Shown: in pieces, positions 5,423-60,709 of the stretch | How the letters are laid out: every line of letters starts with the position of its first letter | How positions within the stretch are numbered: position 1 is the first letter of the stretch | Assembly (NCBI GenBank): GCA_965224025.1 | Contig: OZ245033.1 | Location: 544,001-608,000, forward strand | Origin: Candidatus Multivorans sp. | GTDB lineage: Bacteria > Acidobacteriota > Thermoanaerobaculia > Multivoradales > Multivoraceae | DNA: 64,000 nt | Direction of reading: 5' to 3' | Program-made: the position numbers and the translations under genes | The notes under the pieces: model-generated | Seen by the model: the letters and a program-made list of their open reading frames with translations, nothing else | Told to the model about the DNA's origin: nothing | The model's database searches: none

Positions 5423-6097
5423 CTACGGTTCCCTGGACTCCGTAGCCCGCGCCATCCGCTTCAACTGCTCGGCGAACTCGCCGAGCACTTCAGCGGCGAT
5501 GTCGATCTGCGTCTGGGCCTCGTCCCATTCACTCTGTTCGATCGCCTCCCGCACTCCCGGCAGCGTCTTCACGCCGTAGCCGGTGTAGAGACCGGGCGAA
5601 TACAGGTGGTGCCGGAACCAGGGACGGCCCGGCAGACCGTGGGCTCGCGTCAATAGCCTTTCGCTGCCCAGGATGAGTTCGTCGAGTTCTTCCTGCGCGG
5701 CCTCTTCGCCGTTCCGAGCCGCCGATGCCAGCGACTCGTCGGCAGACCCGGCCGCGCGCACGAGCCGATCGTGCGCGTTCCTGAGCGGTGCGAAGTTCAG
5801 ATACGGGGCCGGCGCTTGAGCTTCCGGCTCCACGAAGGGCCGGGTCGGATCCGCCGCCAACCGGAAGGCCCCGCTCCGCACCAATTCGCCCTCCCGTTCC
5901 AGCTGCGTCCGTTCGTTCGCGGCAAGCTCGACGACCTCGTCGATGTAGCGGCCGACAGTCGCCGCGGTGGCGCCGAACTCGGCACCGAAGCCACGGTCAG
6001 GCCGAGGGCCAGCAGCGGAGCGACGGCACCCGGAATGCCGGCCAGAATGCCGGCGTACCTGTACCTTTCTCGGCGGAGCTCTGAAGCAGACGTCTCA
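5423..6097 (-). pseudogene. Internally deleted M28 peptidase (glutamate carboxypeptidase II / TfR dimerisation domain): signal-peptide-like segment joined to the C-terminal ~185 aa
   Basis: GLPGRPWFRHHLYSPGLYTGYGVKTLPGVREAIEQ is the TfR-dimer C-terminus; the frame extends to EFGATAATVGRY (~5980); just upstream, in another frame, is a hydrophobic GILAGIPGAVAPLLALGLTVASV; PA and catalytic domains are absent. Confidence 0.7.
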
Positions 6098-25845: not shown

Positions 25846-26106
25846 GTCGCCGCTTCGCGGCGCGTTCTCTGGCCGCCTTCGGCGGCAGCGGACCAGAAGG
25901 TCCGCGCACCGAGAGAATGACCTTTCCCGGAGCGAGAGTCTCTACTGCAGACTCACCGCTTGCAGTGACGCCGTGAGGGCTGCAGAACAGAAGCGCGCCC
26001 GCGCCGACGCCGTATCTCTGGGTGCGCGGACCCTCTGGTCCGCTCAGGGGCGAAGCCGCGGAGCGGCGCAGCCCGAAAGACGCAGCCGCCGGCCGGAGGC
26101 CGGCGA
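25846..26106. repeat. Two back-to-back REP-like composites, family R
   Basis: GCGGACCAGAAGGTCCGCGCACCGAGAGA (25888-25916) and CGTATCTCTGGGTGCGCGGACCCTCTGGTCCGC (26011-26043); match 60531-60709. Confidence 0.8.
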
Positions 26107-28218: not shown

Positions 28219-28282
28219 GATGCGGGCAGGGATGCCCGCGTGCCCAGGTCAGATGCGGTCAGGGATGCCCGCGTTCCCAGGT
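28219..28282 (+). repeat. Tandem 33-bp REP-like units, family R
   Basis: GATGCGG(G/T)CAGGGATGCCCGCGT(G/T)CCCAGGT twice. Confidence 0.8.
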
Positions 28283-54249: not shown

Positions 54250-54696
54250 TCAGTTGCCCTCAGACGCAAGCCACGCCTCGGTCTCGACGACGATCAGCTC
54301 GCGATAGTCGCCCCGCATCTCCCAGGTACCCATGAAGCCCTTGGGCACGAGAAAGGTGTCGCCCGCCTTGTAGGTCGCCTTGTCCCCGTCGACGTGAGTC
54401 AGCGTGACTTCCCCGTCCAGCACCAACACGAACTCGTCATACGGGAACGGAAACGGGATATCCAGGAGAGCCGGCGCCGCGGCGTAGATGGCCACGACCA
54501 CTTCCCCTTGATGGAGGATGCTCTGCCAATGCTCGCTCTTGCCCTCCAGGACCAACTCGGCCGGGAACGGCTCCGCGCTCTCGAGCTGGGCCCGAAGCAA
54601 CTTCCCCGCGTCGAGCGGAAGGATCTCGGGAGCGGCAAACGCCTGCGAGGGCGACAGGATGCACAGCAGGACGGCGAATCGACAGAACACCTTCAT
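54250..54696 (-). CDS. Exported cupin-domain protein
   Basis: Signal peptide; PYDEFVLVLDG, AGDTFLVPKGFMGTW. Confidence 0.8.
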   Translation of the reverse strand: MKVFCRFAVLLCILSPSQAFAAPEILPLDAGKLLRAQLESAEPFPAELVLEGKSEHWQSILHQGEVVVAIYAAAPALLDIPFPFPYDEFVLVLDGEVTLTHVDGDKATYKAGDTFLVPKGFMGTWEMRGDYRELIVVETEAWLASEGN

Positions 54697-54780
54697 CAGG
54701 GAGCCTCCAGGTGTGCGCCTGAGCGCAGCGGGAGAATTGTCTGGCGTCAACAAAGGACGACGCACGATATCCAAACCGCG

Positions 54781-54850
54781 GAGCCGGCCTTGCGGCCGGC
54801 GCGTCTACCTGGCCGCCCACGGCGGCAGTCGGCGAGGACGCCGGCGCACC
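54781..54850 (+). repeat. REP-like cluster forming the IS110 target
   Basis: Hairpins GCCGGCC/GGCCGGC and GTCGGCG-AGGA-CGCCGGC followed by GCA-CC; the CAG tail of family R lies on the far side of the IS. Confidence 0.7.
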
Positions 54851-54864
54851 TGTACCTTTCCGGG

Positions 54865-55140
54865 ATGCATTCTGGCGTGTCGTTGAGAGAGGTGGAATGG
54901 ACCAGTAGCCGGACCGGCAGCTTCCGCAGCCGAGACCGCCGGTCGGTTGCGTCTCCGGCCTGCCGGAGTCACTGAAGGAAAGTCGGCAAGCAGCCAGGAG
55001 CGACCACCGGCGTACTGTGCTTCGAGCACCTGGCTGGGACCCGTGCCCTGGCTGCTTTGCCGCGTTGGACGCCCAGTGGAGAGTCAGTGCCTTAGAGCAC
55101 CAGTACAGGTACGGGCAGGCAACGCGGCATGCCGACCAGG
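54865..55140 (+). ncRNA. IS110 bridge RNA (5' hairpin, target-binding loop, donor-binding loop)
   Basis: 10-bp stems AGCAGCCAGG/CCTGGCTGCT and TGCCGCGTTG/CAACGCGGCA enclose guides matching target and donor; 5' and 3' ends approximate. Confidence 0.85.
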
Positions 55141-55171
55141 CAACACTACCGCAAGGGAGAAGGAGGACGAG

Positions 55172-56424
55172 ATGATCAGGACGTGGTTCGCCGGCGTGGA
55201 CTGGGGGTCCGAAACCCACCATGTGTGTTTGCTGGATCGGGACGGCAAGGTGAGGGGGGAGCGGGCGTTCGACCACAGCGGCAAGGGACTTGCCGCCATG
55301 GCCGACTGGCTCCTTGGACATACCCGACCGACGTCTCCGGACGAGATCGGCGTCGCCATCGAGGTGCCGCACGGACCGGTGGTCGAGACTCTCCTGGAGC
55401 GGGGCTTCGCCGTGCATTCGATCAACCCCAAGCAGCTCGACCGCTTCAGGGACCGCTTCTCCGTCGCCGGCGCCAAGGATGACCGCCGCGATGCACGGGC
55501 GCTCGCCGCCGCGCTTCGCACCGACCCCGAGTGCCTGAACCGCGTGCAACCATCCGATGCAGCCATCGTGATGCTGCGCGAGGTGTCCCGCGGCCGCAAG
55601 CAGTTGGTCGGCCAGAAGAACCGCCTGGAGAACCAGGTCCGCGACCAGCTCTGGCGCTACTACCCGCAGTTTCTCGCCGTGGTCAAGAACGAGGTGTCGG
55701 CGCCCTTCGCGCTGGCCTTGTGGCGACTGGCGCCGACCCCCGGCAAGGCTCGACGGCTGCGCGAAGCCACGCTCGCCAAACTGCTCAAGGAACACCGCAT
55801 CCGGCGCCTGACCTCCGCCCAACTGCGCGATCAACTGCGGGCCGAGCCGATCGCCGTTTCCCCGGACACCGTTAAGGCCGCCGTCGAACACATAGGACTC
55901 CTCCGGCCGGTGCTCGACACCGTCTGCCGCCAACTCGCCGACGCCGACAAGCGGCTGGAGCGGATGACCCGCGCACTCGAGGCCCCGGCCCAACGGGAAA
56001 ACGACGACGACTCCCCTAAGCCGAGCGACGCCGCCATCCTCAGGTCGCTGCCCGGACTCGGCAAGGTCGGCCTCGCCACCCTGCTCTCCGAGGCCGATCA
56101 AAGCCTGGGCCGCAGAGACCACGAGGCACTGCGTTGCCTCTGCGGAGTGGCGCCGGTGACCGTCAAGTCCGGCAAGAAGCTCATCGTCATGCGACGACTC
56201 GCCGCCAACGAACACCTCAGCGACGCCGTCTATCACTGGGGACGAGTCGCCATCCAGCATGACCCGATCAGCCGCGCCAAGTACGACGCCATGAAAGCCC
56301 AGGGAAAAACGCACGGACGCGCCATCAGACAACTCGTCGACCGACTCCTCGGCGTCGCCTGCGCCATGCTCCGAGGCCGACTCTCTTCGACCCCAACAAG
56401 CGATGCCATGCCCAGGTCGCATGA
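55172..56424 (+). CDS. IS110 DEDD recombinase (1-nt frameshift near 56380 removes the native stop)
   Basis: FAGVDWG, VAIE, AKDDRRDA, LPGLG, VKSG; alternative frame gives LFDPNKRCHAQVA-TGA(56422); AAGGAGG RBS. Confidence 0.9.
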
Positions 56425-56566
56425 CCTCCCTGACCCGCAGCAGCCTCCCCAAAACACACTTGCTAAAGGGTGGAGAGTCCCAGTACGGCCCGTCGACGTT
56501 TGTCTGACGCACAACAGCCGCTCGATAGAGATAGCCTCGTTCATTCAAAACCGAAGGAGAACTCCC

Positions 56567-57481
56567 ATGAGCCATCGAGTCGTTCGTCTCTCCGGATCCC
56601 TGGGCGCCGAGGTCCACGATCTGCCGCTGGCCGAGGTCGGCCCCGACGAGGCCGCGACGATCCGGGCGTTGCTGCTGGACCACCAGGTCCTGTTCTTTCC
56701 CGACCAGCACCTGACCGTGGAGCAGCACGTGAAGTTCGGGCAGCACTTCGGCGAGCTCGAAGGGCACCCGCACCTGAACAACCCGTTCCTCGACCACCCC
56801 GAGGTGTTCGAGCTGGTGGCGACCCGCGGTGGCGTCGCCGACGAGTGGCACAGCGACATCAGCTTCCAGGAGAGCCCGTCGGTGATGGCGATCCTGAACA
56901 TGGTCAAATGCCCCGAGGTCGGCGGCGACACGATGTGGGCGAACATGTACAAGGCGTACGAGGAGCTGTCGCCGCCACTGCAGGAACTCTGCGAGGGCCT
57001 GACCGCGCTCCACGACGCGACCCCGCACGGCAAGCCGGAGAGGATGACGATCCACCCGGTAGTCCGGGTGCACCCGGAGACCGGCCGCAAGTCGCTGTTC
57101 GTCAACGAGCACTTCACCCGCCGCATCGTCGAGCTCAGCCACGAGGAGAGCGACCACCTGCTCGGCTACCTGACCCGCTGGGCGACGAAGACGCGCTTCA
57201 CCGTCCGCTACCGCTGGCAGCAGGGCACCCTCGCCATGTGGGACAACCGCTGCACCCAACACTTCGTGCTGAACGACTTCGACGAGGAGCGGATCATCCA
57301 GCGGGTCACCGTGATGGGCGACGAGGTCGAGGGAGCGAGCGAGCCCCGCTGGGCGCCCTACGTGCGCGCCCGGCACGCCGGCGCCACCAGCCGCTACGAC
57401 CGGCAGCTCAACAAGTACCTCAAGCGCACCGTCCAGTCGCTTGAGTCGAACGCAAAGAAGGAAGTCGCGCTGGAGATGTAG
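56567..57481 (+). CDS. TauD/TfdA-family alpha-ketoglutarate dioxygenase
   Basis: LGAEV, WHSD, GGDTMWA, HPVVRVHPETGRK, WDNRCTQH; own AAGGAG RBS. Confidence 0.93.
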   Translation: MSHRVVRLSGSLGAEVHDLPLAEVGPDEAATIRALLLDHQVLFFPDQHLTVEQHVKFGQHFGELEGHPHLNNPFLDHPEVFELVATRGGVADEWHSDISFQESPSVMAILNMVKCPEVGGDTMWANMYKAYEELSPPLQELCEGLTALHDATPHGKPERMTIHPVVRVHPETGRKSLFVNEHFTRRIVELSHEESDHLLGYLTRWATKTRFTVRYRWQQGTLAMWDNRCTQHFVLNDFDEERIIQRVTVMGDEVEGASEPRWAPYVRARHAGATSRYDRQLNKYLKRTVQSLESNAKKEVALEM

Positions 57482-57484
57482 GGC

Positions 57485-58546
57485 GTGCGAGCACTCACCG
57501 CCCTGCTTCTCACCGTTGCCTTCGGCCCGGGCCTGGCGCAGGGCCAGCCCGCCGAACAGTGCACCCCCGAAGGCGCAAGCACCCAAATGCCGCGCAGCGC
57601 CAGCGCTTACGCGGCGATGTGCGAGCCCCACCTGGGCGTGGCGCCGACCGTCGACTGCAGCCAGGGCGCGCGCATCCGCATCCGGCAGGATGGCCAGGAA
57701 ATCTTCGAGGACCCGGGGCTCCACGCCTGCGACGACGGCAGCCTCCAGATCGGCGACTGCATGCCGGGCTCGAGCCTTCAGCGCCACGAGGGCAGGAACG
57801 CCGACGGCACCCCGCGTCCCGAGGTCGTCTGGGTGAGCTTCTGCCGCCACGACGGGCGGGACGATGTCTTCAACGTCGACATCGGCGACTCGGTCCAGAT
57901 GATCGGCTACAACGTCGAAACCGGCGCCACCTGCTTCTTCGAGTCAGGCGACAACAGCCCCTGGACCCACATCGGCGAGAACAACCGGCTGCTCGGCGTA
58001 TTGCCGAGTCCCGACGACCCGGAGTTCGACGACGCGTACGTCCCTGCTGGAGCCATCCAGTGCGTCCGCTGCCACCAGGCGGACCCGTTCATCCACAACC
58101 CCTGGATCAAGTCGGCGCGACTTCCCGAGAATCCGCGCCAGCCCGTCGTCCCGGTCCTTCCCGGTCCGAACCCGCCCTACTACGTCGTCGGCGCTCCGAC
58201 CTGGGACATGCGGACGATCCACATCGAGGGCAACGGTTGTCTCGGCTGCCACCGGGCCGGCATGGAGACGCTGGAGGAGTTCACCGGTGACTTCTGGGAC
58301 CCCAACGAGCACATGCCGCCCCACGATCCGGGCTCACTGACCGCGGACCTCGAGGCGCTCCAGCAGTGCTGGACCGACGGCCCGGAGAACACTCCCGGCT
58401 GCGAGTGGGTCGTTCCACCGGCCGGCGAGTGCAGCGGCGGCGGCGTGGGGCCGGACTATCCCCACGCGGCCAAGGGCTTCAATCGCGGTCCCAAGAGTAG
58501 GGGGCACGGCTCGGGCAAGCGCTGGATGAAGCAGGAAGAGAAGTAG
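57485..58546 (+). CDS. Secreted Cys-rich putative di-heme c protein
   Basis: Signal peptide; CVRCH and CLGCH; HMPP near the C-terminus. Confidence 0.7.
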   Translation: MRALTALLLTVAFGPGLAQGQPAEQCTPEGASTQMPRSASAYAAMCEPHLGVAPTVDCSQGARIRIRQDGQEIFEDPGLHACDDGSLQIGDCMPGSSLQRHEGRNADGTPRPEVVWVSFCRHDGRDDVFNVDIGDSVQMIGYNVETGATCFFESGDNSPWTHIGENNRLLGVLPSPDDPEFDDAYVPAGAIQCVRCHQADPFIHNPWIKSARLPENPRQPVVPVLPGPNPPYYVVGAPTWDMRTIHIEGNGCLGCHRAGMETLEEFTGDFWDPNEHMPPHDPGSLTADLEALQQCWTDGPENTPGCEWVVPPAGECSGGGVGPDYPHAAKGFNRGPKSRGHGSGKRWMKQEEK

Positions 58547-58568: not shown

Positions 58569-59571
58569 TCAGGACGAGGAGCCAGCGAAGTCGCCGACGC
58601 CAGCGCGCAGGCGAGCGCCCGCCCCGGCTGTCCGGGCGCCTCCGCCCACCGGGCCGCGACGTGCCCGTCCGGCCGCACGAGCAGAGCGCCCGACTCGGTG
58701 ACACCCAGCAAGACTCGGATCTGATCCGGGTCCCTGGGGCTGATCGGCGCGTGGGCCAGCAGGGACGATCCGAGTTCGTCGACGTGCGCCCGCCAGGCGC
58801 CCGGGTCGACGGTCACCAGGACGAACCCGGTGCCGACGAGGTCGAGACTGCTGCGTCCGTCGGTCAACCACAGGTGCGGGAAGCGATGGCCCGGCCGGCC
58901 AGTGGGCACGTAGTCGATCACGGGATCGGGCGGCCGCGGCGCTGGCGCGCCGTCGGGGACCATCGCGGGACCGCCGTAGGCGTAGCCGAGTTCAAGGCCG
59001 GCGAAGTTGCCGTAGCGCACCGCGGCGCGCACGGCGTCCGCCGGCGAGAGTCCGCCCGCGTGGTTGCCGGTGGCGGCGGCCGACACGCCGCCCACGAGTC
59101 GCGAGTTGTCGAGCGAGCGAGCGGTGTTCTCGACCGCCACCGGTCGCCGCTCGACCTCGTAGGTGTCGTGAAGCGACGGCGAGGCAACGCCGCGGAGCAC
59201 CAACGCGAGCTTCCAGGCCAGGTTGTCGATGTCCTGCAGCCCGGTGTTCATCCCGAAGCCGCCGGTGGAGGCATCTGATGCGCGGCGTCCCCGGCCAGGA
59301 ACACGCGGCCTCGCCGAAAGTGCTTCGACACGGTGGCGTACATGGTCCAGTAGTTGAACGACAGGATGTCGAGCTCGGGGACGCTGCCGGCCACCGCCTC
59401 GCGGATCCAGTTCGCGCACCACGCCGGGTCGACCTTCGCTCGCTCCCGATCCGTGCCGCCGAAGGGAATCTGGCTGAGCCACCGTCGCCGGCCGTCGGGG
59501 ACAACGGCCGACCTGATCGCTCGGCGCGACCAACTGCTGGGCGCCGGCGCACCCAGTGTGCGTAGATGTCG
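58569..59571 (-). pseudogene. C-terminal half of a FAD-dependent aromatic monooxygenase, frameshifted
   Basis: GRVFLAGDAAH / GGFGMNTGLQDIDNLAWKL, YEVERRPVA, PGHRFPHLWL, LVRPDGHVA; N-terminal GxGxxG domain missing. Confidence 0.8.
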
Positions 59572-60530: not shown

Positions 60531-60709
60531 CGTATCTCTGGGTGCGCGGACCTTCTGGTCCGCTGCCGCCGAAGGCGGCCAGGAGAACGCGTCGGCCGGA
60601 GGCCGGCTCCACTATGGCGGGAGCGCCCGTTGGCAAGAACAGCTCGTGCGCGCCGCTTCGCGGCAGCGCACTTGATGCGGGCCAGAAGGCCCGCGCACCC
60701 AGAGATACG
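60531..60709. repeat. REPIN-like inverted pair, family R
   Basis: CGTATCTCTGGGTGCGCGGACCTTCTGGTCCGC ... GCGGGCCAGAAGGCCCGCGCACCCAGAGATACG. Confidence 0.82.

Follow-up and report, generated by a model that had tools for sequence, protein, structure and literature searches.

The window analysed here, a 64,000-nt stretch (C1:544001-608000) of a 5.14-Mb genome with 67.6% GC in three contigs, contains an IS110 open frame flanked by a minus-strand cupin gene and a TauD-family dioxygenase gene. The IS110-family element occupies 54851..56480 on the plus strand (1630 bp, with one CC core counted at the right end), its boundaries having been set by aligning 14 copies and its differences read against copy c743, and is a decayed version of a 1710-bp element. 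The left flank reads GTCGGCG (54828-34), AGGA, CGCCGGC (54839-45), GCA and CC (54849-50), followed from 54851 by TGTACCTTTC / TGTACC..., while at the right boundary GGTGGAGAGT-CC (56479-80) is followed by CAGT (56481-84). As a preliminary description of this DNA had stated, removal of the IS restores a hairpin and its tail, which can be read directly at 54828-54850 / 56481-84: excising 54851-56480 in silico rebuilds a 7-bp hairpin with a GCACCCAG tail. The sequence to the left is the left portion of a composite REP-like element of about 73 nt (54778..54850, plus strand) with the terminal hairpin GTCGGCG/AGGA/CGCCGGC. It includes the left target CCGGCGCA (54841-48) and the core CC (54849-50), both on the plus strand, and the right target CAGT (56481..56484, plus strand) is the remainder of the repeat tail. 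A whole-genome blastn search located this ~73-nt composite element at about 20 further loci that have no IS.

The recombinase gene (55172..56424, plus strand) encodes a DEDD RuvC-like domain and a Tnp domain, as determined using Pfam and the frames of all copies. Matches to DEDD_Tnp_IS110 (PF01548; 1.5e-32, 113 bits) and Transposase_20 (PF02371; 1.1e-12, 48.6 bits) both lie above the curated cut-offs, and the protein matches IS621 (8wt6) with E 2e-11. In the alignment with IS621 (8wt6), the Asp of GvDwg, the Glu of aiEv, the Asp pair of kdDrrDa and the Ser of kSGkk are identical, with the catalytic residues numbered according to the description in PMC11208158. The 417-aa protein ending LRDRTLFDPNKR…VA is intact in 10 of the 14 copies. 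One base near the 3' end is missing from the window copy (after 56379), c3855 and c534, replacing the last ~14 residues, and the frame of copy c2020 is shifted near its start. Within the window (55172-57481), the 1-nt deletion leaves the recombinase frame stop-free to the end of the TauD gene, a reading of 844 codons from an upstream TTG.

The gene is preceded by a non-coding left end (54851..55171, plus strand, read from sequence) carrying a -10-like hexamer, TACCTT (54853-58, plus strand), and is followed by a right end (56425..56480, plus strand) with a -35-like TTGCTA (56460-65), the donor left half GGTGGAGAGT (56469-78) and the core CC (56479-80). The copy alignment and junction search revealed a CC core on either side of every copy and no long inverted ends. 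Across the joined ends of a circle (the RE-LE joint), TTGCTA-17 nt-TACCTT is readable. IS110 elements are described in PMC11208160 as rebuilding a promoter over this joint and, by analogy with the IS621 work, the element studied here would pass through a circle intermediate and may use a junction promoter of the same kind. The integrated left end was scanned for sigma-70 sites and terminators, and neither was detected. In four public runs (X1-X4), Logan contigs covering 54600-56700 break at the IS ends and include neither an RE-LE joint nor an empty-site joint; they carry the majority variants, with one more base after 56379 and a complete left-end module at 54911.

Searching the genome with 54701-56700 by blastn revealed 14 full-length copies, 97.4-100% identical, and four fragments. 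When the ends of the 14 copies were aligned, similarity began at TGTACC and stopped at GAGTCC, and each copy had a GCCGGC-type hairpin ending GCG[C/T]ACC before it and C[A/G]G[T/C] after it. A genome-wide search for the start of the left end gave 19 hits, comprising two chance matches in unrelated sequence and 17 IS left junctions (14 from the full copies, two from fragments at C1 13635 and C1 5037772, and one from a stub of 14 nt at window 6060, C1 550060), all 17 of which lie directly after a hairpin and GCG[C/T]ACC. The right-end motif gave 26 hits, 15 of them preceded by IS right-end sequence, and at each of these 15 junctions CC is followed by CAGT (9), CAGC (4) or CGGT (2). The idea that the element is programmed against a family of host palindromes, put forward in the preliminary description, was upheld by this map, in which all 17 left and all 15 right junctions fall within a hairpin-plus-tail repeat, at the same base and in the same hairpin subfamily, with the consensus …CCGGCG[C/T]A-CC/IS/CC-C[A/G]G[T/C].

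The stub in the window (6037..6073, plus strand) comprises a second repeat hairpin (…GCCGGCGTACC) and 14 nt of the IS left end, and looks like the remnant of a deleted copy beside the 3' end of a minus-strand gene. Elsewhere, one IS copy is found in two parts about 15 kb apart across the ends of C1 (13083-13646 and 5044239-5045405); the left part extends to IS position ~620 and the right part begins from ~620, so that the copy was either split by an insertion or rearranged.

Could the hairpin and tail be the element's own termini, carried along from site to site, rather than a host target? Outside the boundaries adopted here, the copies do have some sequence in common, about 25 nt at the left side and 4 nt at the right. 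The arms (CGCCGGC or GGCCGGC) and loops (GGGA, AGAA, GGA and, in one case, a ~70-nt insert) nevertheless differ between sites while the IS interior remains 97.4-100% identical, and the outer DNA is unrelated across the 14-copy alignment; the hairpin therefore belongs to the host site and not to the element. In addition, the uninterrupted hairpin with GCACCCAGT occurs without any IS at least 38 times, and a repeat that is empty here (C1 1037723) has an orthologous intergenic spacer that is occupied in a relative with 65% protein identity (L026). Taken together, these observations make carried-along termini extremely unlikely, and we treat the hairpin and tail as a host repeat.

This repeat is abundant in the genome. 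CCGGCG[CT]ACCCAG occurs unoccupied 44 times, against an expectation of 2.7 (iid) or 2.4-2.5 (Markov order 3 and 5), and is thus about 18-fold over-represented, well above chance; GCCGGCGCACCCAGT occurs 35 times against 0.1 expected. There are 434 GCACCCAG octamers, 157 of which have a hairpin with 7-bp arms upstream (at most one mismatch). Their arms fall into subfamilies, GGCCCGC (39), GGTCCGC (33), CGCCGGC (22), GACCCGC (12) and GGCCGGC (10), that differ by changes paired on both arms, as expected of compensatory change. Using a crude gene map, made of GC3-filtered ORFs and spanning 64% of the genome, and counting as deep any position more than 150 nt inside an ORF, we found none of the 32 target-subfamily hairpins deep inside ORFs, compared with a genome background of 0.50. 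For all hairpins with GCACCCAG the figure was 22 of 157, compared with 149 of 277 for tails without a hairpin. On this crude ORF map, then, the repeat family of ~157 hairpin-plus-GCACCCAG copies is mostly extragenic.

Insertions in extragenic repeats should be tolerated, and so the pattern might reflect unspecific insertion in which only copies landing in harmless repeats survived. Survivorship, however, yields neither the same base and orientation at 17 of 17 sites nor the avoidance of sister hairpins that are equally extragenic: every insertion lies in an arm ending CCGGC, a type represented by 32 further hairpins that are unoccupied, and none lies in the 84 hairpins with arms GGCCCGC, GGTCCGC or GACCCGC, each one base off the guide described below. 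We give next to no credence to unspecific insertion as the origin of this pattern, and retain targeting of the repeat. No further IS110 paralogue was detected in this genome by tblastn; here, therefore, the sister subfamilies are not used by a second element.

Several members of the family lie within the window, at the places where the preliminary description had put them. An unoccupied exact target, GCCGGCGCACCCAGT, is at 59543..59557 (plus strand), and a sister-subfamily repeat that the window IS does not use, with arm GGCCCGC and tail GCACCCAG, is at 60677..60702 (plus strand). Related hairpin-plus-tail repeats are found at 25888-25916 (tail GCACCGAG) and 28219-28282 (tails GTGCCCAG / GTTCCCAG). 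The tail motif C[CG]GCGCACCCAG is abundant in five related genomes too, with 130, 151, 325, 31 and 33 occurrences, compared with 9, 5, 5, 8 and 6 for the reversed control. Inverted repeat pairs occur at C1 292777-/292901+ and 2025263-/2025390+. Target hairpins with a long loop, in which a ~70-nt structured insert separates the arms, were observed at C1 229498, 283514, 1605776, 1738960, 2662229 and 2681645, the last of which holds the IS.

In these features the repeats resemble canonical REP, BIME and REPIN elements, which are likewise short, GC-rich imperfect palindromes with a conserved tail, present extragenically in dozens to hundreds of copies, with inverted pairs and compensatory arm variants. 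Unlike the case of canonical REPs, a search for a Y1 transposase/RAYT (PF01797) gave no match in this genome, which is scored 100% complete; the control search hit 6 of 14 named control genomes. Because no RAYT was found, we call the repeats REP-like. The earlier claim of host REP targeting therefore holds as far as a hairpin repeat family is targeted, but not in the sense of canonical REPs.

To characterise the non-coding left end, we aligned the 165 nt upstream of the recombinase gene across 24 distinct variants, drawn from 80 related loci; L066 and L075, which have no anchor, were left out of the 79 rows used, and L056, whose target loop is disrupted, was left out of alignment A1. The consensus fold consists of two units, each with a stem at its base, a large internal loop and a short hairpin at its apex, and 11 of its 33 pairs show compensatory changes. 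When scanned against Rfam, the window left end and a full-length left end matched no family, giving only sub-threshold chance hits. The loops were delimited from the consensus fold and a table of guides and sites, and the labels for left guide (LTG), right guide (RTG) and handshake were assigned by analogy to IS621 as described in PMC11208158.

The first unit, a target-binding loop (54989..55056, plus strand), contains a left target guide CCGGCGUAC (DNA CCGGCGTAC; 55007-15, plus strand) in the same sense as the left flank. An apical hairpin (55017-29, plus strand) separates it from the right target guide GCUG (55033-36), the core-pairing GG (55037-38) and a putative handshake AC (55039-40). 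On this 3' side, GCUGGG is the complement of CC-CAGC, and AC complements the GT that ends the IS right end. The second unit, a donor-binding loop (55059..55128, plus strand), has the corresponding arrangement: a left donor guide GUGGAGAGUC (55076-85, plus strand) in the same sense as the right end, an apical hairpin (55087-100, plus strand), then the right donor guide GUACA (55103-07), the core-pairing GG (55108-09) and a putative handshake UACG (55110-13). Here GUACAGG is the complement of CC-TGTAC, and the UACG that follows is the complement of CGTA in the left target. The donor guides thereby match GGTGGAGAGT-CC at the right end and CC-TGTAC at the left end.

Guides and sites change together. 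Across the 24 variants, both left and right guide segments follow the flanks, as seen by comparison in the guide-site table. A relative with 76% identity that uses the GACCCGC repeat subfamily has guide AACCGCGCAC and site ACCCGCGCACC; guides CAGGGGTCCC / CUGAAAAGG go with sites CAGGGGGTCCC and CCTTTTCA, guide AAGCGGATCC goes with GAAGCGGATCC and CCACTTG, and guide UCCGCGCAC goes with GTCCGCGCACC and CCCGGTT. The donor guide in turn tracks the right end (GGAGAGT versus GGGAAGT versus GGGGAGT). The two-loop fold with its compensatory changes, and this co-variation of guides with insertion sites, bear out the reading of the left end as a bridge RNA.

In light of these data, we consider it highly likely that the window holds a bridge-RNA-guided IS of the IS110 group, whose target loop spells out the 3' arm and tail of a single REP-like hairpin subfamily. 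The target programme would be CCGGCG(U/C)A, the core CC and then CAGC. A recombinase with DEDD and Ser catalytic residues would act together with a two-loop left-end RNA of ~140 nt, one loop of which would pair with the repeat, its left guide with the bottom strand and its right guide with the top strand, while the other would pair with GGTGGAGAGT-CC-TGTAC, the sequence across the joined ends in the excised circle. Strand exchange at the CC core would then fix both the base of the repeat at which the element lies and its orientation there. The assignment of strands, the handshake pairing and a tolerance of wobble pairs are predicted from the work on IS621.

The match between guide and site is not always exact. 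The left guide is polymorphic at its "T" position, which is U in five of the 14 copies and C in nine, while the remaining guide segments are identical in all 14. The U allele, CCGGCGUAC, is carried by the window copy, c743, c534, c297 and c2854; the C allele, CCGGCGCAC, matches the common repeat exactly on the left side. It had been proposed that both loops encode CGTA where the occupied site has CGCA. This is true of the window copy, where the target loop corresponds to CCGGCGTAC and TACG at 55110-13 is the reverse complement, but CGTA is only one of two alleles, and nine of the 14 copies encode CGCA. When the guide of each copy was compared with its own flank, 9 were exact, 3 (including the window copy) had a U:G wobble and 2 (c3855 and c829) had a C·A mismatch, both of these carrying a C guide yet lying in T-type sites. 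For c3855 and c829, either the guide acted in trans, or it changed later, or the position tolerates a mismatch. Measured against the U guide, all deviations in occupied sites are wobble-compatible (T/C at -2, A/G at +2, C/T at +4); the window copy shows two deviations from its own guide, U:G on the left and G:T on the right, in agreement with the wobble-compatible mismatches noted in the preliminary description.

Occupancy differs between site types. The cognate site predicted in the preliminary description, CCGGCGTA-CC-CAGC, which is the perfect 14-mer for the U guide, is occupied 4 times and free only once, compared with 9 occupied sites and 38 free ones of the type CGCA..CAGT (Fisher p = 0.011, with 5 perfect sites only). 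Occupancy is thus ~20% for wobble-type sites versus 4 of 5 for perfect ones.

The single free perfect 14-mer has a mutated arm. Together with the presence of a hairpin at 17 of 17 occupied sites, and with a 2026 preprint in which a target stem-loop is described as adding specificity for ISPpu10 (bioRxiv 10.64898/2026.03.19.712850), this would be in line with a recombinase that reads the shape or sequence of the hairpin unaided, the RNA complementarity being incidental. Such a recombinase does not account for the joint change of guides and sites among relatives with sites of unrelated sequence, nor for the sister hairpin subfamilies, of the same shape and with the same tail, that are never used, and we judge unaided recognition to be very unlikely. 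A structural layer atop RNA guidance is possible. When a requirement for the hairpin was tested (17 sites occupied, 48 free with a hairpin, 9 free without), the comparison was underpowered, giving p = 0.11 overall and p = 0.18 outside ORFs; for ISPpu10, the target of which is laid out in the same way, the 2026 preprint describes a requirement of this kind.

Upstream of the bridge RNA, the left end contains a conserved Y-shaped module of ~100 nt, composed of a closing stem and two near-identical hairpins, the full form of which is found at L001:240-345. Among Thermoanaerobaculia elements the module hardly varies, even where protein identity is down to 65%; the Vicinamibacterales relatives lack it. 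The module is incomplete in c3855 and in the window copy, which retains a remnant (54899..54960, plus strand) and, relative to 12 of the 14 copies, lacks 79 nt after 54910. With its guides and ends intact, its left end truncated and the tail of its recombinase frameshifted, the window copy probably depends on other copies, which could mobilise it through the ends and guides that it retains.

The layout of the element closely follows that of IS621 from E. coli. The two have the same two protein domains, with aligned catalytic residues, and a left-end RNA with target and donor loops, a 2-nt core and handshake bases after the core-pairing bases (as laid out for IS621 in PMC11208158). In IS621, the handshake bases are described as pairing with the other DNA once strands have been exchanged. 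Both insert into REP-type elements, 144 of 173 mapped IS621 insertions being reported in REPs (PMC11208160, PMC11208158). They also share a one-base difference between the encoded guide and the commonest natural site, which for IS621 is given as ATCAGGCCTAC versus ATCGGGCCTAC (PMC11208160, PMC11208158). The differences are nonetheless considerable: the protein is distant in sequence (E 2e-11) and comprises 417 aa where the IS621 chain has 328 residues, the core is CC and not the CT of IS621, the repeat sequence is unrelated, the left end is longer (400 nt) with an extra conserved module, and the host phylum is Acidobacteriota. The word "convergent" in the preliminary description is a fair one, given this distance of the recombinase from IS621 and a repeat unrelated in sequence to the REP targets of E. 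coli and Pseudomonas.

REP-inserting IS110-family elements have also been described in Pseudomonas, Sinorhizobium and Neisseria (PMC1525189, PMC12288879). As in the published descriptions of ISPpu10 and ISPpu9 from Pseudomonas putida, all copies lie in one REP sequence (PMC1525189, PMC12288879), and the targets are extragenic and often form convergent pairs; as described for ISPpu10, the left target makes up the 3' arm of a stem-loop, and the guide does not extend over the 5' arm (bioRxiv 10.64898/2026.03.19.712850). Unlike ISPpu10 and ISPpu9, the window IS has another host phylum and another repeat, and is known from sequence alone. Guide-site co-variation, too, has been reported over thousands of orthologues (PMC11208160). 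Among the matches of a full-text literature search on IS110 and REP sequences in Acidobacteriota, the one listed, PMC6006769, deals with HuH endonucleases and is unrelated. The mechanism is already known from IS621 and ISPpu9/10, and what is new is the member from Acidobacteriota. Since the mechanism itself is established, the value of the locus is comparative: it extends RNA-guided IS110 targeting of REP-type repeats from Pseudomonadota to Acidobacteriota with the same layout, and provides a natural data set on retargeting and mismatch tolerance, with two guide alleles in one genome, wobble versus perfect occupancy, and retargeted relatives.

The related loci come from Ca. Multivorans MAGs, with protein identities of 91-93% and 71-76%, from other Thermoanaerobaculia at 65%, from Vicinamibacterales at 55-59%, and from an Azospirillum and a gammaproteobacterial MAG. 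In the Ca. Multivorans MAGs, the genes beside the IS copies have 87-93% DNA identity to syntenic parts of this genome, which makes a Ca. Multivorans (Acidobacteriota, Thermoanaerobaculia) its most likely source. We tentatively raise a broader proposal, which we think more doubtful than probable: that in Ca. Multivorans and its relatives the IS110 lineage diversifies in step with the superfamily of hairpin repeats, with two guide alleles in one genome, sister species retargeted by one or two guide bases to arms CCCGC and TCCGC, and distant relatives on other repeated DNA; and, as part of the same proposal, that the Y-shaped module, being better conserved than the protein, may be an undescribed accessory domain or regulator of bridge RNAs.

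In one Ca. Multivorans relative (L036), a ~73-nt composite repeat with a related IS (74%) lies between the TauD gene and the next gene; in the counterpart of this region in the window (57472-57680), only 3 nt are found there, with neither repeat nor IS, so the repeats, too, are gained and lost between close genomes. Among the Vicinamibacterales, four copies (L037, L054, L072 and L076, in genomes G006-G009) are inserted into GGGGTCCC/TTTTCA, a motif with 4-14 occurrences in each of the genomes G006-G009 and 0 in the reversed control. It often forms inverted pairs 2.7-3.2 kb apart, which suggests that the pairs are the ends of another mobile element. Finally, seven copies from one Vicinamibacterales genome (L057, L061, L062, L064, L065, L067 and L071) have identical flanks, GCTTTCGTCCC and CCCTCCCCC, so they too sit in repeated sequence.
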